Shown in pieces: positions 26,807-45,345 of a DNA stretch of 64,000 nt. The translations under genes and the position numbers were made by a program. The stretch lies in contig WTBT01000022.1 in NCBI GenBank assembly GCA_013138965.1, forward strand, positions 7,459 to 71,458. Direction: 5' to 3'. Numbering within the stretch: position 1 is the stretch's first letter; each line of letters begins with the position of its first letter. Below the pieces are notes generated by a model, which did no database searches, had not been told where the DNA came from, and worked only from the letters and a program-made list of their open reading frames with translations. This stretch comes from Candidatus Aegiribacteria sp. GTDB taxonomy: Bacteria; Fermentibacterota; Fermentibacteria; Fermentibacterales; JCC-6.

Positions 26807-26911
26807 AGGCTTTCACACTGGTCATCCAATCAGTAGACTTCCTGCTCCTCCCGGGGTATTTTCTATCTTCTTGATTATTTTGTTCACAAAATTCAGCGGG
26901 GGGAGCTATTC

Positions 26912-27655
26912 ATTAAAGATCAGCATCCGGAAGGCATTTCGGTAGTATTTCCCGCATTCAACGAAGAAGAAAACGTGGAGTACATGGTTGAAACGGCCAT
27001 TGAAGTTCTATCAGGTCTTGGAGTTGAATGGGAGATAATCGTTATTGATGACGGGTCTTCCGACAGAACAGCTTTGATCGCGGAAGAACTCACACGGATA
27101 CATCAGGGTGTAAAACTTGTAAGGCACACTGAAAACAGAGGAATCGGAAGCGCTGTAAGAACAGGTATATCCTCATCTTCAAAAACATGGATATTCTACA
27201 CCGACTGTGACGGACAGTTTGACCTTGGTGAGCTTGAAAAGCTCTGGCTCGTTCGCGAAAATTCAGATGTCGTCTCCGGTTTCAGGCGAAGGAGAAAGGA
27301 CCCTCTGATGAGGCTCATCTATTCCTTCGCGTACAATACCCTTGCATATATATTCTTTTTCGGCGGATTCAAGGATGTGGACGCGTCTTTCAAACTTTTC
27401 AGACGTGAGATCTTCGACAGGATAAGCTTAAGATCATCTTCCAGTGTTGCTGACCTTGAACTTCTTCTCTTGCCGCGAATGTGCGGTTACAGAGTCCGCC
27501 AGCTTCCGGTATCCCACTTTCCCCGCAGGGCAGGCATAGTATCATGTGAGAGCTACAGGAAGGGGATTTTCGCGTGGGTCAGGATAGCTCCCATAATGGA
27601 AATGTTTCTTCAGCTCGTTCAGCTGCGGTTAAGAGTATGGAGGGGAGATGTCTGA
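26912..27655 (+). CDS. glycosyltransferase family 2 (DPM1-like); conserved N-terminus lies upstream of the first canonical start
   Basis: GT2 motifs 'ISVVFPAFNEEEN', 'IIVIDDGSSDRT', 'YTDCDGQFD'. The first ATG/GTG/TTG is the GTG at 26975, inside the conserved first beta-strand. An in-frame ATT at 26912 lies 6 nt after a GGGGGGAG Shine-Dalgarno. Confidence 0.6.
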   Translation: MKDQHPEGISVVFPAFNEEENVEYMVETAIEVLSGLGVEWEIIVIDDGSSDRTALIAEELTRIHQGVKLVRHTENRGIGSAVRTGISSSSKTWIFYTDCDGQFDLGELEKLWLVRENSDVVSGFRRRRKDPLMRLIYSFAYNTLAYIFFFGGFKDVDASFKLFRREIFDRISLRSSSSVADLELLLLPRMCGYRVRQLPVSHFPRRAGIVSCESYRKGIFAWVRIAPIMEMFLQLVQLRLRVWRGDV

Positions 27656-29069: not shown

Positions 29070-30648
29070 AGACTGCCACGGTCTTCGAAGAACTCTGTTT
29101 CCGCTTCTTCTTATTGCCGCTGTTCCGGCGCTCCTTCTTCCTTACATGCTGGTTCTCCTGTCCGATACCCCTGGAATAATCGGAATTCCTCACAGGGAAT
29201 CCGCGATTACGGAAGATTCCGATGTATATGAACAGGCATGGCATTTCTGGTGGGTTTCCAGCGCCCTTCAGAACGGTCAGGACCCCCGTTTCTGTCCCCT
29301 TATCTATTCACCGGAAGGAGTGTCGCTTGTATACGACCATATAGGGTGGCATGACACTCTTATTTTCGCGATTATCGGGATTGGAAAAGAGCATCCCGCC
29401 CTCTCTCATACACTATCGCTGCTGCTTGGCACAATGCTTACCGCGATTTTCGGATGGCTTCTCGCGAGATCGTGGGGAGCGGACAGATACGGAGCTCTCT
29501 TCACAGCTCTCGCGCTGGCATGGCTCCCTTCCAGAACAGCGCATTTGCTTCAGCACTATCAGTTAGCGAACTGCTGGACACTTCCGGCTTCGCTGTGGCT
29601 CTGCAGAGAGTATCTGAGAAAAGGAAAACTCAAAACCCTTGCTGCTTTCGCGGCAATTGTTATGCTGGCAGCTGTTCAGAGCCCGTTTATCGCCATATTC
29701 GCGGTACTCGGTCTCCCTGCAACATGTTTCATAATAGGTGGGAACTGGAAGAGAACCGCAATTCTTGCGGGAGGCGCCGGCCTGGCGGCCGCGGTGGTTG
29801 GAATTCTCATCCTTACAGCTCCCGGGCATATCACTTCGCCTTCAACACATTGGAGGGAAGCGATATACTGGGCAGCCGAACCCCAGTCATTCATCCTGCC
29901 TTCCCCGTTTGGCCCCGCAGGCTACTTATTCGGGATTCCCGCGAGATTCTCCTGGATGTCGAACACTGCGGAGGGTGTTGTTTCGCCCGGCCTTACTGTT
30001 CTGGCAGCTTTTGTTATTCTTATCTGGAGAAGAAGAAAATGGAGATTGCCGGTTGTCATTCTGGGCCTTGGGCTGCTTGCCCTGGGGCCTGAACTGCGGA
30101 TTCTCGGTCGCCCTCTGGGAATACCTCTGCCATTCAGGATTCTGCAGCTGTTTCCTGTACTGGATGGAATAAGAACCCCGTCCAGGTTTGCCATACTCGC
30201 CGGGCTGTTCACCGCTGTCGGGGCTGGAATGGGGATAACTCTTGTGAAGCGAAGATGGAAACTGCTGTTTCTTTCGCTTCTCATGTTCGAACTATGGATT
30301 CCTGTTTTTAGCGTGCTGTCCACCAGGATCCCATCGGCCTGCATGAGCATACCCGCGGGCAGTACCGTTCTGGAGGTTCCTGTCGATAACAATGTTAGAA
30401 GGTATGCCTGGTTCCAAACAGGAAATTCCTGCTCCCGCAGGTACGCTTTTCTGGCAAGGCTGCCCGAAACAGGCAACGAAGATTATCTTCTGCAGGAATC
30501 ATTGGAGAGGGGAGATGTGGTAGTTTATCATAGATGGCTCTTTGATGAGGAGGATAGAAACCGTTACGATACTCTCTATGCGGAACTATTCCCCGAAGGC
30601 TCAAACGCAGATTCAGTCTGGATACTCATGAACGGTGGTTCGCAATAG
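29008..30648 (+). CDS. polytopic integral membrane protein (about 12 TM), possible GT-C-type glycosyltransferase or polymerase
   Basis: Hydropathy shows many TM helices. It sits within the glycosyltransferase cluster. Alternative starts at 29038 or 29053. Confidence 0.5.
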   Translation: MMAEHCVSAVMDMSRMLSGNKDCHGLRRTLFPLLLIAAVPALLLPYMLVLLSDTPGIIGIPHRESAITEDSDVYEQAWHFWWVSSALQNGQDPRFCPLIYSPEGVSLVYDHIGWHDTLIFAIIGIGKEHPALSHTLSLLLGTMLTAIFGWLLARSWGADRYGALFTALALAWLPSRTAHLLQHYQLANCWTLPASLWLCREYLRKGKLKTLAAFAAIVMLAAVQSPFIAIFAVLGLPATCFIIGGNWKRTAILAGGAGLAAAVVGILILTAPGHITSPSTHWREAIYWAAEPQSFILPSPFGPAGYLFGIPARFSWMSNTAEGVVSPGLTVLAAFVILIWRRRKWRLPVVILGLGLLALGPELRILGRPLGIPLPFRILQLFPVLDGIRTPSRFAILAGLFTAVGAGMGITLVKRRWKLLFLSLLMFELWIPVFSVLSTRIPSACMSIPAGSTVLEVPVDNNVRRYAWFQTGNSCSRRYAFLARLPETGNEDYLLQESLERGDVVVYHRWLFDEEDRNRYDTLYAELFPEGSNADSVWILMNGGSQ

Positions 30649-30653
30649 GAGAT

Positions 30654-31769
30654 ATTCGTGTCCTTTTCGATCTCAGCATAGTTCCCCATGCGCTCGGTGG
30701 AGTAGCCCGGTACCTTCTATCAGTTGCGGGAGCCATTTCAGAAGTCGCCGGGCAGTTCGGAATCGAATTTATCCCCCTGGACGTTCCTGCGGCACATCCC
30801 GGTGTTCCCGGACCTGAAATGGTCGATCTTGTCCTTGAAACTCCTTTTTATCTTAAAATCCCTTTTTTCAGAAGAATTCCCATTCGAAAACGATGGGAAG
30901 AGAGATCACGGGCCGAAAGGCTCCGCGCATATGCCGGAGGAAGATCGGTATTTCACCACAGTGGCGTGCAGACTGAGTATCCCGCCGGAAGCGTATCCGT
31001 AGTAACTGTATACGATCTATCAGCTCTTGAAAATCCCCAATGGCATACGAAGGAAACGGTTTTATTTGCCGAAAGGGAAGCCCGGCTTATAGAGGGTGGT
31101 TCCTCGGTTATGGCAATATCGGAATGGACCAGGCAGCGGGTTATTGATTATTTTGACCTGCCGCAGGAGAGGGTATTCTGCGCTGGAGGAGCTGCGGACA
31201 GTATTTTTTCACCGGGGTCGCCCTCCTCAGGAGTAATGGAAAAGCTGGACCTTGAACCCGGAAGATATTTCCTTCATGTGGGCAACTTCGTTCCAAGAAA
31301 GAACATTCCATTTCTCCTGGATGTGTACGGAATATCCAGAGATAAGGGCGTTAAAATCCCTCTTGTTTTGGTTGGAGCGGGTGGATGGGGGGATGTGGCG
31401 GTTGATGAGGGACCGGGAGTACGGGTACTGAGGAACCTTTCCAACAGAACTGTAGTTGAGTTGTACCGCGGAGCCAGAGCGCTTCTTTGCCCCAGCAGTT
31501 TCGAGGGACTCGGCCTTCCCGTGCTTGAGGCATTCGCATGCGGCACTCCGGTTATTTCAAGCAGCGCCGCCGCTCTTTCGGATACGGTAGGGAATGACGG
31601 GGTTCAACTTGATCCCGGCGATCATGAAGGCTGGGTCAGGGAAATTACAGCGCTTGAGGAACCGGAAAGGGTAGATGATCTTCGGAGAATGTCCTCCTCA
31701 GCCGTGAGGAAGGACTGGCAGGATATAGCGAGAGGCATCTGCGGATTCTACAGGAGGATATCGGAATAA
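30654..31769 (+). CDS. glycosyltransferase family 4 (GT4-A); conserved N-terminus upstream of the first ATG
   Basis: 'GLGLPVLEAFACGTPVISSSAAALSDTVGNDGVQLDP' is a GT4 motif. The frame is open from 30649 and encodes canonical 'IRVLFDLSIVPHALGGVARYLL', but the first ATG is at 30819. A candidate ATT at 30654 follows an AGGAG at 30647-30651. Confidence 0.7.
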   Translation: MRVLFDLSIVPHALGGVARYLLSVAGAISEVAGQFGIEFIPLDVPAAHPGVPGPEMVDLVLETPFYLKIPFFRRIPIRKRWEERSRAERLRAYAGGRSVFHHSGVQTEYPAGSVSVVTVYDLSALENPQWHTKETVLFAEREARLIEGGSSVMAISEWTRQRVIDYFDLPQERVFCAGGAADSIFSPGSPSSGVMEKLDLEPGRYFLHVGNFVPRKNIPFLLDVYGISRDKGVKIPLVLVGAGGWGDVAVDEGPGVRVLRNLSNRTVVELYRGARALLCPSSFEGLGLPVLEAFACGTPVISSSAAALSDTVGNDGVQLDPGDHEGWVREITALEEPERVDDLRRMSSSAVRKDWQDIARGICGFYRRISE

Positions 31770-38937: not shown

Positions 38938-40614
38938 TTGTCGAAGAAATTCATCATAGGTGTTGAGCTTCTGACAGGGCTTGTTATCGGAGCCGCTGCG
39001 GCGGTCGCGGCAGTATCCTTCATAATAGTATTTCTTGTAGATAAGAACCTTGCAGCTGAATCAGGTCATATGGCTACGGTAACAGCCTATGCAATAAGCA
39101 GATCGATCGATTCGTACGATACTGCGGGCGAGTTTGGAAATATTGTTGGCCCCCTCGTGCGAAGCGGAAGCCTTGAAGCTGCAGTGATAATTGATTCTTC
39201 AGGGAACATTATCGCCGAATCCGGACTTTCATCTGAGGACATGCCCGTACCGGGGGAGACCCGGGACTGGTACTTCGTACGGCAGGCCGGAAGTGATCTC
39301 CTTATAGGTGTCAGAGCAGGCAAGTCGTCGATTTCAATAATACACAGGACACTTTTAATCGGTCTCGCAGCGCTTACCGCAGCTCTGGCAGTTCTGGCTT
39401 TCTTCACACCCAGATACCTGGCCAGAACTGTAATTTCCCCGCTGAGGAAGATTCTGGTTGAGGCTGACCGCTTCAGCAGCGGAAGCGGAACCGATCCGGA
39501 AGCCGCTGGAGCCTCCTTTCACCGTCTTGTGGAACTTCTTCACGAAAGGGAACGGCAGCTTAACGAACTGAGGGAAAAGGCCGAACAGAGGGCTGAAATG
39601 GTGGAAGAAAGATCAGGCGCAATTCTATCGGTACTCGGATCGGCCGTATTAGCTATTGACGGAACAGGTAAGCTGTCACTCTTTAACAGGCAGTCAAAGG
39701 AGCTGTTCAGCCTTGGCGATGATGATATAAGGAAAGAATTTCCATGGGAGAGAACACCGGCGGGGCGTCAGCTGGAACTCATACTCCTTTCCATGACCAG
39801 GACGGGGAATACATCATCCGAATTCCAGATACTGGATGACGTTTCTAAATCCAATAGAATGTACAGTGTAGAAATTTCCCGATCAAGAGCTGATGAGATC
39901 GCTATCCTGGTTATCGATGTTACGAGAATAAGTGAACTGGAAAAAAGAATAGCAGACGAGACAGCCATGGCTGATATCGGAGCCGCGTCTGCCGGCATAT
40001 CGCATGAAATGGGAAACACACTCTGTGCTCTATCCGGATTTGTAGATCTTCTTGCCAGAGGGCATTCGGACGAAAGGACACTGAATATCCTGTCAGAAGT
40101 AAAAAGGGAAGTTGATTCAGCCCAGGACAGGATAAATTCCCTGGGAAATTTCGCCAGATCCCCCGAACCTGTTTCCTCTAACCTGGGCAGGGATGATATT
40201 CTCTCCATATGCAGGGAAGCCTGCAGGCTGGATACTGACAGATGCTCCGTAGAAGCCTCAGTTGATGATCTGTCAATCAAAGCTGACAGAAGGCTTCTGG
40301 GATCATGTATCTGCAATGTCCTGAAGAACGCGATCGAAGCTGATTCATCTTCAGCTGTGGAGATATCAATAGGAAGGAATGATAAAAATCTCATAATATC
40401 AGTTGCGGATACGGGGCCAGGTCTTTCCCTGGACAGGGAAGAGGTATTCAGACCCTTCAGAACGACAAAGAACAGAAGCAGCGGCAATATGGGGCTCGGT
40501 CTTTCCGTCAGCAGGAGAATTATAAGATCCATGGGCGGCGAACTCAGCGGTGAGAACAGAACAGAAGGCGGTGCCCTGTTCGCGATTATGCTCCCGCTTC
40601 AGCGAAGGAGGTAA
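38938..40614 (+). CDS. sensor histidine kinase (TM sensor, PAS-like, HisKA, HATPase_c)
   Basis: H-box 'ISHEMGNTLCAL' and G-boxes 'DTGPGLS..', 'GLGLSVSRRII'. TTG start preceded by an AAGGAG Shine-Dalgarno. Confidence 0.85.
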   Translation: MSKKFIIGVELLTGLVIGAAAAVAAVSFIIVFLVDKNLAAESGHMATVTAYAISRSIDSYDTAGEFGNIVGPLVRSGSLEAAVIIDSSGNIIAESGLSSEDMPVPGETRDWYFVRQAGSDLLIGVRAGKSSISIIHRTLLIGLAALTAALAVLAFFTPRYLARTVISPLRKILVEADRFSSGSGTDPEAAGASFHRLVELLHERERQLNELREKAEQRAEMVEERSGAILSVLGSAVLAIDGTGKLSLFNRQSKELFSLGDDDIRKEFPWERTPAGRQLELILLSMTRTGNTSSEFQILDDVSKSNRMYSVEISRSRADEIAILVIDVTRISELEKRIADETAMADIGAASAGISHEMGNTLCALSGFVDLLARGHSDERTLNILSEVKREVDSAQDRINSLGNFARSPEPVSSNLGRDDILSICREACRLDTDRCSVEASVDDLSIKADRRLLGSCICNVLKNAIEADSSSAVEISIGRNDKNLIISVADTGPGLSLDREEVFRPFRTTKNRSSGNMGLGLSVSRRIIRSMGGELSGENRTEGGALFAIMLPLQRRR

Positions 40615-40619
40615 ATGAT

Positions 40620-41891
40620 ATAGAAAGAATTCTGCTTATCGAAGACAAACGGGCCATGCGTAATATGCTCACAACAGCCCTTCAGGAAGATGGGTGGGAT
40701 GTAACCGCTGTATCTTCGGGAACGGAAGCCCTGAAGAAGATCGAGGGTGGCGGTTTCGATATTCTGCTGAGTGATATATGTCTTCCCGGAAATACAGGCG
40801 GGATGGATATCCTCAGAAAATCCAGGGAATTCAGTCACTGGACACCTGTGATTCTCATGACAGCCTTCGGTACTGTTAACCTTGCGGTTGAGGCAATGAA
40901 GGAGGGGGCAAGGGATTTTATAACCAAACCCTTCGATCTTGATGAACTCCTTTCACTGCTCCGAAGGTTTGTGCATTCGTCAGGTACCGATATCATAGGG
41001 TCTTCTTCGTCACTGCTTTACACATTAAGGAGGGCTTCAAAGGGCTCTGAGACCGACCTGAATATTCTTGTGCTGGGCGAAAGCGGAACCGGAAAGGAAC
41101 TTCTGGCGAGAATGATCCATCGGGAAAGCAGATGTTCGGATGGACCCTTTGTGCCTGTTAATTGCGCCGCGATACCGGCTGACCTGATGGAGAGTGAACT
41201 CTTCGGAGCTGAAAAGGGCGCCTACACAGGTGCAGACCGAAAAAGGGCCGGCAGGTTCGAGCATGCTCAGGGAGGAACCATCTTCCTTGATGAGGTTGGA
41301 GACCTTAACACTTCACTGCAGGGTAAACTTCTCAGAGTACTTCAGGAAAGGGAGTATACCAGAGTCGGAGGGGCAGAAATCTTACATACCAATGCCAGGG
41401 TCATCTCAGCAAGCAACAGAGAACTCAAGGAGGAAACCGAAGCGGGCAGATTCAGAAAGGATCTCTACTTCAGAATAGGGGAGTTTCCGGTTACCCTTTC
41501 CCCTCTTCGCGAAAGGGTGGAAGACATACCCGATCTGGTCATGCACTTTCTAAGACAGTCCGGTCACCGCGAAGTAATCGTTACAGAGGATGCGATGATC
41601 AAGCTTAAGGGATACCGTTGGCCGGGAAATATCAGACAATTGAGAAGCATCGTGCTAAGGGCGGCGGCCCTTACGGATGACAGGATCATCGATGCCGCGA
41701 TACTTGAGATCGATGATGCGGCATCCGCTGAGGGGCTCCTTGAGGAATCCGCGAGGGCAGCGAAGCTTCGCGAAACGGAAATGATAAGAAGAGCGCTGAA
41801 GGAAACCGGTGGAAACAGGAAAAAGGCCGCTTTGATACTGAAGGTCAGCTACAGAACTCTGCTTTCGAGGCTTAAGGAACTGGATATCTGA
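40620..41891 (+). CDS. sigma-54-dependent response regulator (NtrC family: REC, AAA+, HTH_8)
   Basis: REC 'RILLIEDKRAMRNML..DILLSDICLPG', AAA+ 'VLGESGTGKELLAR', 'ESELFGAEKGAYTGA', GAFTGA-like 'GAYTGA', C-terminal HTH 'TGGNRKKAALILKVSYRTLLSRL'. The first ATG at 40656 is after the first REC beta-strand. The frame is open from ATA at 40620, preceded by a GAAGGAGG Shine-Dalgarno. Confidence 0.8.
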   Translation: MERILLIEDKRAMRNMLTTALQEDGWDVTAVSSGTEALKKIEGGGFDILLSDICLPGNTGGMDILRKSREFSHWTPVILMTAFGTVNLAVEAMKEGARDFITKPFDLDELLSLLRRFVHSSGTDIIGSSSSLLYTLRRASKGSETDLNILVLGESGTGKELLARMIHRESRCSDGPFVPVNCAAIPADLMESELFGAEKGAYTGADRKRAGRFEHAQGGTIFLDEVGDLNTSLQGKLLRVLQEREYTRVGGAEILHTNARVISASNRELKEETEAGRFRKDLYFRIGEFPVTLSPLRERVEDIPDLVMHFLRQSGHREVIVTEDAMIKLKGYRWPGNIRQLRSIVLRAAALTDDRIIDAAILEIDDAASAEGLLEESARAAKLRETEMIRRALKETGGNRKKAALILKVSYRTLLSRLKELDI

Positions 41892-42027: not shown

Positions 42028-43953
42028 GTGACAAGAAAAATGGAGGAGATGACAGCCTCCGATTATGAAGCAATCGGACTTCGCAGCGGGCTGGAGATAC
42101 ATCAGCAGATAGATACTGAAAAGAAACTCTTCTGCCGCTGCCCGGTACTCCCGTACTCTGACGTTTACGATGCTCAGATACTCCGCCATATGAGGCCGAC
42201 CCTTTCAGAACTTGGTGAATACGACGGTACCGCTCTTATGGAGTTCAAAACAAGAAAGAATATTACATATCAGATAAACAGTGATACTATATGTACTTAC
42301 GAAATGGATGATAACCCTCCTTTTGAATTGAACCCACAGGCTCTGGATATTGCCCTTGAGATAACGATGCTGCTTAATTGCAAGCTTGTGAGTGAGGCTC
42401 ACATATTAAGGAAGCAGTACCTTGACGGATCAATACCTGCCGGCTTTCAGAGAACCACACTTCTGGGAGTGGACGGCTGGGTTCCCTTTGGGAACAGGCG
42501 CATAAACATCATCCAGCTTGGACTGGAGGAGGATGCCTGCCGGGAAGTGAGCGATTCTGGGCACGAACGTGTCTACCTGACGGACAGGCTTGGAATACCT
42601 CTGATAGAGACGGTAACAGCTCCCGATATGACTACACCGCATGAAGTGGCTCAGGTAGCCGTTATCCTGAGCAATCTGGCTCGTGCTTCCGGCAAAGTCC
42701 GCAGAGGGATCGGCGCCGCGAGACAGGACGTGAACGTCTCTGTAACGGGCGGGTGCCGTGTGGAGATAAAAGGTGTTTCACGGATTCCCGCGATACCGCT
42801 GCTTGTCCATAACGAAGCCTTCAGACAGGTGTCTCTGCTTGAAATAAAGCGGGAGCTGTCCAGGAGGGGAATAACCGATTCAACCTTCAGTTCAGAGTAC
42901 TTCGATGTAACACGGGAAATCGCGGGAACTTCCTCCAGATACGCTGTAACAGCGTTGAAGAGGGGGTTTGAACTGCGGGCAGTTGTACTGAGGGGATATC
43001 GGGGATTGCTCTCCACGGTTACCCAGCCCGGTCATACTTTTGCCCGCGAGATATCCGACAGAGTCCGTGTGGTCGCATGTCTGGACGACCTTCCAAATAT
43101 CGTTCACGATGGAGAAGAAGGTGACAGTTTCTCTGATAACGAGTGGGAGATTATAAGAAAGAAAACCGGCGCAGATTCGGAAGATGCCATTGTTGTTGTC
43201 TGGGGATCCGCTGAAGATATTGAAACTGCGGTCAGTGAAATAACCCTGCGGGCAAAAGATGCCATTGATGGAGTCTGCAGTGAAACAAGGCAGTCGCTTC
43301 CCGATGGTACGAACGGATTCGAGAGAATACTGCCCGGGCCGAACAGAATGTATCCTGACACTGACCTCCCGCCCATCGTCATTACAGAGGAAATGATAGA
43401 ACGTATCGGATCTGCGCTCCCTGAAAGACCCTGGGAACGCGCGGAGCGGTACGTTGCCGCAGGTGTGCCTAATGAAACCGCCCGCCAGATGAGCATTTCT
43501 GATATGAGATTCCTGTACGATTCCGCCGCTGCGAAGTGTAACTATTCTCCACGGGTTCTCATGCACTTTTTCTTGAGCACCCTGCAGCATCTTAAGAAGA
43601 GTGGAAGGATTCCCGGATTGACAGAAGAGAGTTTGATAGAAGTACTCGAAAAAGCCGGAAAGCAGAACCTTTCAATCGAAGCTGCAGCTTTCATTATTGA
43701 GAGAGTATGCGGATACGATCGAACCGGGATTGATATCGTGATAAAGAACCTGAAAATTCCCGGCAGGAAAGAACTGGAAGATGCTGCCGGCAGCCTGATG
43801 GAGGCGGCGGGTAACTTCGATTCCCTTCTGCTGGAGCAATATCTTACCGGGAAGGTAAGGGGCAGGTTCAATGGCATAGCCGGTGGCAAAGATGTAATAG
43901 AAGTGGTTCGCAACGTAATCCTTTCACGAGCTGGTAATTCTGGCAGGAGGTGA
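42028..43953 (+). CDS. gatE: archaeal-type Glu-tRNA(Gln) amidotransferase subunit E (GatE)
   Basis: 'GLEIHQQIDTEKKLFCRCP...MRPTLSELGEYDGTAL' and overall length of about 640 aa match GatE, not bacterial GatB. Confidence 0.8.
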   Translation: MTRKMEEMTASDYEAIGLRSGLEIHQQIDTEKKLFCRCPVLPYSDVYDAQILRHMRPTLSELGEYDGTALMEFKTRKNITYQINSDTICTYEMDDNPPFELNPQALDIALEITMLLNCKLVSEAHILRKQYLDGSIPAGFQRTTLLGVDGWVPFGNRRINIIQLGLEEDACREVSDSGHERVYLTDRLGIPLIETVTAPDMTTPHEVAQVAVILSNLARASGKVRRGIGAARQDVNVSVTGGCRVEIKGVSRIPAIPLLVHNEAFRQVSLLEIKRELSRRGITDSTFSSEYFDVTREIAGTSSRYAVTALKRGFELRAVVLRGYRGLLSTVTQPGHTFAREISDRVRVVACLDDLPNIVHDGEEGDSFSDNEWEIIRKKTGADSEDAIVVVWGSAEDIETAVSEITLRAKDAIDGVCSETRQSLPDGTNGFERILPGPNRMYPDTDLPPIVITEEMIERIGSALPERPWERAERYVAAGVPNETARQMSISDMRFLYDSAAAKCNYSPRVLMHFFLSTLQHLKKSGRIPGLTEESLIEVLEKAGKQNLSIEAAAFIIERVCGYDRTGIDIVIKNLKIPGRKELEDAAGSLMEAAGNFDSLLLEQYLTGKVRGRFNGIAGGKDVIEVVRNVILSRAGNSGRR

Positions 43954-43959
43954 TCCAAA

Positions 43960-45345
43960 CTGTCTTCCGATCTTTACAAAGGCTATAGGGGCAAAAGCCT
44001 GGAATGCCTGAAGAAATTCTGTGTCGGCGTATGGTCAGACGTTGATATCAAATCAACCAGAGGGGGCTTCAAGGGTGTCATTCTCCCCAGGTCGGAAACT
44101 GCAGATGATACTCACATAGTATTGAAGATCCACAACGGTTACAATGTAGGCCTGGGCGTAGATACCATAGAGTCCATTACAGAATTGGGAAGAAATGAAG
44201 CCCATTACAAGATCCCTGAGAAGGAATTCCCATTCGATCCTTCCAAGCCGAATGTAAAACTCTTTGGAACGGGGGGCACCATAGCTTCAAGGCTGGATTA
44301 CAGGACCGGTGCGGTAATCCCCGCCTTTTCTCCCGGAGAGCTTTACGGTTCGGTACCTGAACTGGCAGACATATGCAACCTTAAAACGGAGAAGCTCTAT
44401 GGAGTCTTCAGTGAGAATATGGGGCCTGATCAGTGGAAGGGAACGGCAGAAGCGATAGGGGAAGAAATAGCAAACGGTGTTGACGGTATCGTCATTGGGC
44501 ATGGAACCGATACTATGCACCATACAGCCGCTGTTCTTTCATTCATGGTTCAGGATTCACCGGTTCCTATCGTAATGGTCGGTTCCCAGAGATCAAGCGA
44601 CCGGCCTTCCAGCGATGCGGCAATAAACCTCATGAATGCCACTTATGCCGCTTCCCATAGCGATATTGCAGAAGTTATGGTCTGTATGTTCGGGCCCACA
44701 AGTGATCAGTACGGACTTCTTCACAGGGGAACAAGGGTCAGAAAGATGCACTCCTCCTACAGATCCACATTCAGGACTATCGGAGATATACCGCTGGCAA
44801 TGGTTGAAAATGGAAAAATCACACATCTGAAAAATGACTATAAAAAGAGAAGAAAAGACCGAAAGGTGAATATCAATACCGCTTTCGATCCAAGGGTATC
44901 AATCGTGTATTACTACCCTGACATGAAACCCGATATCATAGAATCGCTTATCGATAACGGGTACAAGGGAATAGTTATCGCAGGTACGGGATTAGGACAT
45001 GTTAACAAGCCTCTCTATCCTGTTCTTAAGAAGGCCTGTGAACAGGGTATACACATATACATGACAGTTCAGACACTTTGGGGATACGTACAGATGTTCG
45101 TGTACGACACCGGGCGTGATATCATGGAACTTGGCGTAATCCCGGCATCGAACATGCTTCCTGAAGTAGCATACGTGAAACTGTGCTGGGCACTTGGACA
45201 GAGTCATGACAGCGAAGAAGTCAAGAAGATCATGCTTACCCCGATAGCCGGCGAGATCACGGAGAGGGAGCCACACAACGGGTATCTTATACTCCAGGGC
45301 GGTATTCCCGAAGTTGAAGAGTTCATAAGCAGGTACAAAAGATAG
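43960..45345 (+). CDS. gatD: archaeal-type Glu-tRNA(Gln) amidotransferase subunit D (GatD, asparaginase-like)
   Basis: Asparaginase-fold 'LFGTGGTIAS', 'GIVIGHGTDTM'. The GatD-specific N-domain '..GVILP..DDTHIVLKIHNGYNVGLGVDTIESI' is encoded upstream of the TTG at 44122, in frame from a CTG at 43960 right after AGGAGGTGATCC. Confidence 0.75.
   Translation: MSSDLYKGYRGKSLECLKKFCVGVWSDVDIKSTRGGFKGVILPRSETADDTHIVLKIHNGYNVGLGVDTIESITELGRNEAHYKIPEKEFPFDPSKPNVKLFGTGGTIASRLDYRTGAVIPAFSPGELYGSVPELADICNLKTEKLYGVFSENMGPDQWKGTAEAIGEEIANGVDGIVIGHGTDTMHHTAAVLSFMVQDSPVPIVMVGSQRSSDRPSSDAAINLMNATYAASHSDIAEVMVCMFGPTSDQYGLLHRGTRVRKMHSSYRSTFRTIGDIPLAMVENGKITHLKNDYKKRRKDRKVNINTAFDPRVSIVYYYPDMKPDIIESLIDNGYKGIVIAGTGLGHVNKPLYPVLKKACEQGIHIYMTVQTLWGYVQMFVYDTGRDIMELGVIPASNMLPEVAYVKLCWALGQSHDSEEVKKIMLTPIAGEITEREPHNGYLILQGGIPEVEEFISRYKR

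Follow-up and report, generated by a model that had tools for sequence, protein, structure and literature searches.

The gene for GatD in the 64-kb stretch of the Candidatus Aegiribacteria contig WTBT01000022.1 analyzed here (the window) is very probably translated from a CUG codon at position 43960 that is located behind an extended Shine–Dalgarno (SD) sequence. Comparisons among genomes provide good support for the conclusion that gatD pairs a near-cognate start codon with a compensating extended SD, which is a rare but known arrangement that is conserved in relatives. The predicted GatD product has 461 residues and the N-terminus (f)Met-Ser-Ser-Asp-Leu-Tyr-Lys-Gly-Tyr, in which formylmethionine (fMet) is presumably the first residue. 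The gene for the partner subunit, GatE, is located directly upstream. The features of the junction between the two genes are as follows.

42028..43953, + strand: gatE coding sequence (CDS), 641 codons when counted from its first canonical start (GTG), with TGA 43951-43953 as the stop.
43945..43956, + strand: extended SD AGGAGGTGATCC, whose core GAGGTGAT does not vary among 15 relatives and which includes the gatE stop TGA.
43951..43953, + strand: gatE stop TGA, in the gatD frame and two codons ahead of the CTG.
43960..43962, + strand: CTG, the probable gatD initiation codon, nucleotide-invariant in 15 CDSs and replaced by GTG or TTG in sisters.
43960..45345, + strand: predicted gatD CDS, 461 codons plus TAG.
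44122..44124, + strand: TTG, the first canonical start codon in the gatD frame; it is internal, and its use as a start would remove the GatD N-domain.

Direct reading of the gatE frame shows that it closes with GGC AGG AGG TGA. Past this stop, the unchanged frame reads TCC AAA CTG TCT TCC GAT and continues up to TAG 45343-45345. All codons between TGA 43951-43953 and TTG 44122 were read, and none is ATG, GTG, or TTG. This interval spans 56 sense codons, or 54 when the count is taken from CTG 43960-43962, and its only in-frame near-cognate codons are CTG at 43960, 43999, and 44008, ATC at 44047, ATT at 44080, and ATA at 44116. An earlier note on this DNA had described gatD as a gene without a canonical start that lies in the gatE frame across a single TGA, and direct reading agrees with this description; the 54 codons that it placed before TTG 44122 are correct when counted from the CTG. 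Profile searches identify the upstream gene as gatE (NF003107, 518 bits with a cut-off of 456; TIGR00134, 471 bits), and its alignment to the family model reaches model position 624 of 630 at residue 631.

The translation that follows the TGA matches two family models of GatD, the D subunit of Glu-tRNA(Gln) amidotransferase, over their full length and above their curated equivalog cut-offs, with 520.3 bits for TIGR02153 (cut-off 324) and 520.2 bits for NF003217 (cut-off 310). Pfam models place GatD_N (PF18195) at residues 29-75, PF00710 at residues 100-293, and PF17763 at residues 314-427, such that the three-part GatD architecture of GatD_N, asparaginase N-terminal, and asparaginase C-terminal domains is complete. 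In the alignment with the solved M. thermautotrophicus GatD (2d6f_A; E=6e-121), residue 2 of that protein falls opposite post-TGA residue 10, which indicates that the natural GatD N-terminus is located no more than a few codons past the TGA. The archaeal P. abyssi protein (1ZQ1) likewise exhibits full-length GatD similarity that includes the N-domain (E=5e-119). Furthermore, codons 2-54 of gatD in relatives differ from those of the window by 16-29 synonymous and 2-19 nonsynonymous codon differences. This excess of synonymous differences shows that the codons are translated and are under purifying selection. The earlier note had assigned the codons upstream of TTG 44122 to the GatD N-domain and had proposed aligning them to archaeal GatD N-termini. 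The PF18195 match, the alignments of 2d6f_A and 1ZQ1 through the N-domain, and the purifying selection on codons 2-54 all uphold that assignment. Archaeal GatDE (2D6F, 1ZQ1) and GatDE of the window, where gatE and gatD are adjacent, are thus alike over their full length. However, the aligned archaeal GatD proteins start with Met at the equivalent position, whereas gatD of the window has CTG.

To compare start sites, each locus was aligned on the codon corresponding to CTG 43960. Fifteen CDSs are of the Fermentibacteria/Aegiribacteria type (the window, L001-L004, L006-L008, L010, L081, L082, and L085-L088), and in every one of them the first aligned codon is CTG and the CDS is intact for 461 codons from it. 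The same codon is found in L093, which is the same gene read from another record. Upstream of the CTG, each of the 15 CDSs has the context (G/A)GAGGTGAT(C/T) followed by a 4-nucleotide (nt) gap. No sequence conservation is observed among relatives 5′ of GAGGTGAT; the conserved block begins at this motif, and the loss of conservation marks the gene boundary.

The conservation of the CTG extends to the nucleotide level in lineages that have diverged considerably. About nine diverged CTG lineages were compared, and among the 15 CDSs the identity at four-fold degenerate sites between sub-lineages is 20-49%, which is near saturation, at an amino-acid identity of 81-95%. Leucine codons within the same CDSs serve as a control. 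Twenty-six alignment columns are occupied by Leu codons in all 15 CDSs, and the 25 internal ones each use two to five different codons. The first column alone is restricted to one codon, CTG, whereas none of the 25 control columns (0/25) is conserved in this manner.

Relatives outside of this group carry other codons at the aligned position, and these also are informative. GTG is present in L005, L084, and L009, and TTG is present in L083, L011, L066, and L090, while L089 (CP070727.1), from a different lineage, has CTG behind AAGGAG. In more distant phyla, including Ignavibacteria, Aminicenantes, Calditrichia, and others, an ATG occurs within a few codons of the aligned site. The bearers of CTG, GTG, and TTG are mixed within one clade of a neighbor-joining tree, and the ATG lineages fall outside of it. 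The variation of the first codon of gatD is limited to its first base (N-T-G), a pattern that characterizes start codons rather than Leu sense codons. The inspection of related genomes that the earlier note had called for therefore yields CTG in 15 of 15 CDSs and GTG or TTG in sisters.

The SD that precedes this codon is exceptionally strong by prediction. The near-universal 3′ end of bacterial 16S rRNA reads ...GGAUCACCUCCUUA, and the complementarity of AGGAGGTGATCC rests on that consensus. The earlier note had reported such a complement; the sequence is present, but at 43945-43956 rather than at 43944-43955. The note had also described CTG 43960 as well spaced behind the SD, and indeed the gap is 3-4 nt and is fixed among relatives. 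The 64-kb window contains a single exact copy of the 10-mer GGAGGTGATC, which ends 4 nt before the CTG, with a spacing that is invariant in the clade. A crude scan for an SD plus any start codon was swamped by internal matches, and we instead scored duplex energies against a null distribution of interior codons. Energies were calculated with the 13-nt 16S tail GAUCACCUCCUUA, which is the bacterial consensus and is assumed to apply to the host. The SD duplex predicted at CTG 43960 with this consensus tail has an energy of -20.2 kcal/mol, whereas the minimum among interior in-frame near-cognate codons (n=1747) in the 46 genes of the window is -15.7 kcal/mol.

The rules of initiation that are relevant to this site depend on the identity of the host. 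The closest GatD homologues (best 120) are 80-92% identical, are 408-504 amino acids (aa) in length (mostly 457-466), and are labelled Candidatus Aegiribacteria, Fermentibacteria, or Krumholzibacteriota. A survey of contigs at one genome per species found relatives in 586 of 600 candidate stretches, and the 80 best-matching ones come from bacterial metagenome-assembled genomes (MAGs) of the FCB group, including megabase (Mb)-scale contigs and chromosomes. Synteny is shared between the window and L081, L082, L091, and L092, in the order histidine kinase, sigma54 response regulator, gatE, gatD, HPF/S30AE, HPr kinase, HPr, and PTS EI. The earlier note had implicitly framed the locus as archaeal. 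This framing fails, because close relatives and neighboring genes reveal a bacterial host (Fermentibacteria, FCB group). Since the host is bacterial, bacterial initiation rules apply, namely SD-directed initiation with fMet-tRNA and IF3.

Under these rules, AGGAGGTGATCC and its core GAGGTGAT would anchor the 30S subunit through an SD:anti-SD duplex of 10-12 base pairs, with 3-4 nt left between the duplex and the CUG. Initiator fMet-tRNA would then pair with the CUG despite the first-position C·U mismatch, giving rise to the 461-residue GatD, and the long SD would compensate for the weak codon. Ribosomes that finish gatE might keep the site open or re-initiate at gatD, although this assistance would be optional because relatives do without an overlapping stop. 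GatD output is expected to be below the level obtained with AUG and to be tuned by the SD. In E. coli, initiation at CUG is ∼1-2% of that at AUG (Hecht et al., bioRxiv 10.1101/063800), and by analogy the output of gatD might be in this range, or probably higher given its SD. A speculative purpose for such an arrangement would be to prevent GatD, the glutaminase subunit, from being made in excess over GatE.

Near-cognate initiation in E. coli proceeds with fMet-tRNA and is subject to IF3-sensitive discrimination. The E. coli genes infC (AUU) and pcnB (AUU) resemble gatD in that each is a bacterial gene that relies, or in the case of gatD probably relies, on a near-cognate start. The AUU of infC serves IF3 autoregulation, whereas no such logic is evident for gatD. 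Non-canonical starts represent ∼0.05% of annotated starts in model genomes, and CUG makes up a small part of these (bioRxiv 10.1101/063800). Initiation complexes formed on CUG are less stable, with a weak first-position C·U pair (PMC11497404). In S. aureus, the conserved starts of infC (AUA), cvfC1 (AUU), and ccpN (AUA) all are located behind extended SDs, which have been proposed to direct the choice of a weak codon (PMC13009471). These genes and gatD share a weak near-cognate start that is conserved among relatives and an extended, start-proximal SD. The outcome in the S. aureus system is attenuated, tunable initiation, and gatD would fit this pattern with a CUG codon. However, the S. aureus starts are AUA or AUU codons, which carry a third-base mismatch and were mapped by Ribo-RET and reporters, whereas the CUG of gatD carries a first-base mismatch and the evidence for it is purely comparative.

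Several observations weigh against initiation at the CUG. In E. coli, neither wild-type tRNAfMet nor its M1 variant initiates efficiently on CUG (PMC11497404). An SD-preceded CUG in Caulobacter dnaA formed complexes in vitro but is unused in vivo (PMC8443254). No initiator tRNA or rRNA, and hence no host 16S 3′ end, was found when the 64-kb window and 24 Fermentibacteria loci were searched. Finally, L004, L006, and L007 have a TTG four codons downstream from the CTG that is a possible alternative start, despite its distance of ∼16 nt from the SD.

A variation on CUG initiation is that it occurs mainly by termination–reinitiation, whereby ribosomes leaving the gatE TGA restart 6 nt downstream, rather than by de novo binding of 30S subunits. 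We regard this as unlikely to be the main route. The TGA located inside the SD is the gatE stop, 6 nt ahead of the CTG, in six of the 15 loci (the window, L001, L081, L082, L085, and L087). Tight layouts of stop, SD, and start are typical of translational coupling, which in this case would help to equalize GatE and GatD as partners in an α2β2 complex (2d6f). However, this layout is not conserved. As a component of the SD, whose spacing is fixed, a TGA is present in the gatD frame at each of the 15 Fermentibacteria-type loci, yet it serves as the gatE stop in only the six loci named above. Among the 13 CTG-type relatives that have gatE upstream, seven end gatE at a different stop codon 18-46 nt upstream, and the CTG and SD persist nonetheless. 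These stops are TAG at 25 nt in a different frame (L002, L086, and L088), TAA at 35 nt in a different frame (L003), TGA at 18 nt (L004), TAG at 33 nt (L006), and TAG at 46 nt in a different frame (L007). Outside of the 15, gatE of L089 ends 82 nt upstream of the gatD start, and the TGA of L005 is not in the gatD frame. The upstream neighbor of gatD in L008 and L010 is a divergently transcribed open reading frame (ORF) of ∼500 aa rather than a same-strand gatE, and both loci have kept the CTG and GAGGTGAT, which indicates that de novo initiation suffices. Translational coupling to gatE is not required, and it may contribute where stop and SD overlap, as they do in the window.

The separation of gatD from gatE by a divergent gene of ∼500 aa is seen in three loci, L008 (1159-3004), L010 (1192-2939), and L090 (790-2513). 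In L090, the divergent upstream gene encodes an SBP_bac_5 substrate-binding protein, and gatD has a GAGGTGAT SD and a TTG start.

If the CUG were not used, GatD could be N-terminally truncated, with a start at TTG 44122 or at ATC 44047, ATT 44080, or ATA 44116, as gene callers predict. Several database clusters are indeed called at 408, 434, 440, or 445 aa, and the SD-like score of ATT 44080 is moderate (-10.8). A truncated protein nevertheless is very improbable. Codons 2-54, which would be lost in whole or in part, are under purifying selection and encode the GatD_N domain of the solved archaeal enzymes. Moreover, TTG 44122 lacks an SD (score only -3.1), and the first canonical start among relatives is inconsistent in type and position, falling at codon 4, 16, 23, 50, 53, or 54.

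Readthrough or recoding of TGA 43951-43953, which would produce a GatE–GatD fusion and leave gatD without an initiation site of its own, was offered by the earlier note as the only alternative to a CUG start. The conservation of the CTG and its SD favors the latter, and the variability of the gatE stops counts against the former. As detailed above, the gatE stop differs in type, distance, and frame among relatives, and gatE is not upstream of gatD in L008 and L010. A homologue of fusion length (∼1100 aa) is absent from the best 120 matches, all of which are 408-504 aa. TGA is an ordinary stop in the window, where it is the commonest one (27 of 49 long ORFs). No SECIS-like signal is evident: local RNA structure at the junction (43915-44010) is not significant (minimum free energy z=0.53), and the window yielded 0 matches to Rfam families. 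Readthrough also would leave the nucleotide-level conservation of CTG and SD unexplained. In the six loci where gatE ends at the in-frame TGA, two sense codons before the CTG, a trace of fusion protein is possible as a by-product, as low-level UGA readthrough is known to occur in bacteria. As the explanation for the missing canonical start, readthrough is extremely improbable, and a conserved GatE–GatD fusion is excluded by the sequences compared. Assignment of TGA as a sense or selenocysteine codon was considered separately and rejected, since 27 of 49 long ORFs terminate with TGA, the end of GatE coincides with that of its family model, and the stops of relatives differ.

A single A→C error would suffice to convert ATG to CTG, and a GTG (43950-52) exists inside the SD, but the chance that the CTG reflects a sequencing error, a gatD pseudogene, or a GTG 43950 start combined with a frameshift is negligible, because the CTG is shared by no fewer than 15 assemblies that were obtained independently in different studies and all of the CDSs are intact at 461 codons. 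GTG 43950 itself was rejected as a start because it is out of frame, lacks SD spacing, and opens a 12-codon ORF that ends at TAG 43986-88.

Initiation of gatD at CUG is already implicit in some NCBI annotations. The gene calls in the NCBI records for the orthologues L081, L089, and L093 begin exactly at the CTG, with Met as the first residue and a length of 461 aa. The records with CTG-start gatD genes are GCA_021108005.1 (JAIORS010000154.1), GCA_021108435.1 (JAIOQY010000128.1), and CP070727.1. The two Aegiribacteria records share the SD context of the window as well, and all of these records are gene calls that carry no comment or experimental support. Other pipelines truncate gatD to 408-457 aa: some calls begin with a GTG or TTG at codon 53-54 (408 aa), others begin with a TTG at codon 5 (457 aa), and further lengths also occur. 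The correct GatD would have 461 residues including the N-domain, and pipelines restricted to ATG, GTG, and TTG would lose 54 of these residues.

Other genes in the window also may begin at near-cognate codons. The start regions of three candidates are as follows.

40606-40658: sigma54 response regulator, with SD AGGAGGT at 40606-12, ATA at 40620-22, and the first ATG at 40656.
26900-26977: GT2 glycosyltransferase, with GGGGGGAG at 26898-26905, ATT at 26912-14, and the first canonical GTG at 26975.
30640-30665: GT1 glycosyltransferase, with ATA at 30645, AGGAG at 30647-51, GTG at 30658 out of frame, and the first in-frame ATG at 30819.

The sigma54 response regulator probably starts at ATA 40620. 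Its receiver domain (model position 1) begins nine codons before the first ATG at 40656, and the beta-1 strand with its acidic pair (RILLIED) sits before this ATG. ATA 40620 is the sole near-cognate codon between the in-frame stop and RILLIED. It is located 7 nt after AGGAGGT with a duplex energy of -13.1, and 0.4% of interior controls reach -13. The corresponding site in L091 and L092 is ATC behind GGGAGGT, and the 11 codons after the ATA exhibit only synonymous differences between the window and these two loci. At least 17 ortholog clusters of the response regulator are called short (MRNML... or MLTTAL...), at 408 or 411 aa, and more distant orthologues begin M-x-x-ILLVED. In L094 (20240-20262), an ATG that overlaps the SD (ATGGAGGT) is located five codons upstream of the ATC aligned to the ATA of the window. 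This overlap suggests that the choice of start site drifts among close relatives.

For the GT2 glycosyltransferase, a start at ATT 26912 is probable. The Glycos_transf_2 model begins 12 codons before GTG 26975, such that ISVVFPAFNEEEN precedes the GTG, and the ATT is located 6 nt after GGGGGGAG. At the equivalent site, L091 has ATA, and L094 and L095 have ATC. In all three loci, this codon comes after an SD and directly before AAA, and an in-frame stop is found 6-25 codons upstream with no canonical start between. About 35 GT2 ortholog clusters are called short, at 221-230 aa. The predicted N-terminus of the protein from the window is M-KDQHPEGISVVFPAFNEEENVEYMVETAIEVLSGLGVEWEIIVIDDGSSDR.

The GT1 glycosyltransferase possibly starts at ATA 30645. 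Orthologues align at least 53 residues upstream of ATG 30819, although this tblastn comparison with close relatives served only as a pointer because it over-calls when conservation of the DNA itself prolongs alignments into intergenic or overlapping sequence. The in-frame ATA 30645 matches ATA 2510 of L091, which follows GGAGGT (-13.2), and in L094 an ATG is located another four codons upstream. Alternatively, an insertion or deletion in a T-run may have put the well-placed GTG 30658 out of frame, given that this codon lies 6 nt after AGGAG.

In total, three or four of the 46 genes of the window qualify for near-cognate starts (gatD CTG 43960, ATA 40620, ATT 26912, and possibly ATA 30645). Each candidate has orthologues with a near-cognate codon at the same site, and for each, the alignment to a domain model or to orthologues reaches back beyond the first canonical start. 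When another 20 ORFs of the window that have start-less 5′ extensions were scanned with Pfam, no other domain was found to begin before the first canonical start. The comparison of 3-4 in 46 with the ∼0.05% of model genomes involves a small sample, and the loci are syntenic and not independent. We tentatively propose, at somewhat less than an even chance, that Fermentibacteria and perhaps neighboring FCB lineages (Krumholzibacteriota) use CUG, AUA, AUU, and AUC behind strong SDs in several percent of genes, which would be ∼100-fold above model bacteria. Separately, in 12 of the 46 long ORFs of the window, the first canonical start codon encountered is a TTG. Weak canonical starts thus look frequent, with the provision that the first canonical codon is not necessarily the true start.

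The presence of gatD in this host also bears on the distribution of the enzyme. GatDE has been described as archaea-only (PMC9499178). The literature on the GatD family concerns archaeal hosts, whereas the host of the window is bacterial; the difference is one of taxonomy and not of fold or function. GatDE with 75-95% GatD identity is observed in bacteria of FCB phyla, in hundreds of genomes counted at the species level, including Mb-scale chromosomes. The phyla with GatDE are Fermentibacteria, Krumholzibacteriota, Latescibacteria, Ignavibacteria, Aminicenantes, Calditrichia, Zixibacteria, and Cloacimonetes. Literature searches, judged by title and abstract, returned no paper on bacterial GatDE, and they returned none on start codons in Fermentibacteria or on GatDE in Ignavibacteria.

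If our interpretation is correct, then gatD provides a clean, comparatively validated example of a natural bacterial CUG start, and such starts are rare. The combination of CUG with 10-12 nt of SD pairing would support the view that extensive SD pairing enables weak codons to serve as starts. The more interesting leads are the possible enrichment of weak starts at the level of the phylum and the distribution of bacterial GatDE. If the proposed enrichment is true, then initiation fidelity in these organisms would be relaxed or differently tuned, through IF3, the anticodon stem of the initiator tRNA, or long anti-SD pairing, and proteins would be systematically truncated at their N-termini in the MAG annotations of the phylum. 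Annotation of MAGs then would need start-codon models for each lineage. An uncultivated phylum that is common in anaerobic digesters also would offer a natural test of initiation fidelity as determined by IF3, the G-C pairs of tRNAfMet, and the anti-SD. Regardless of how widespread weak starts prove to be, this locus documents the "archaea-only" GatDE as a widespread and highly conserved enzyme of FCB-group bacteria.

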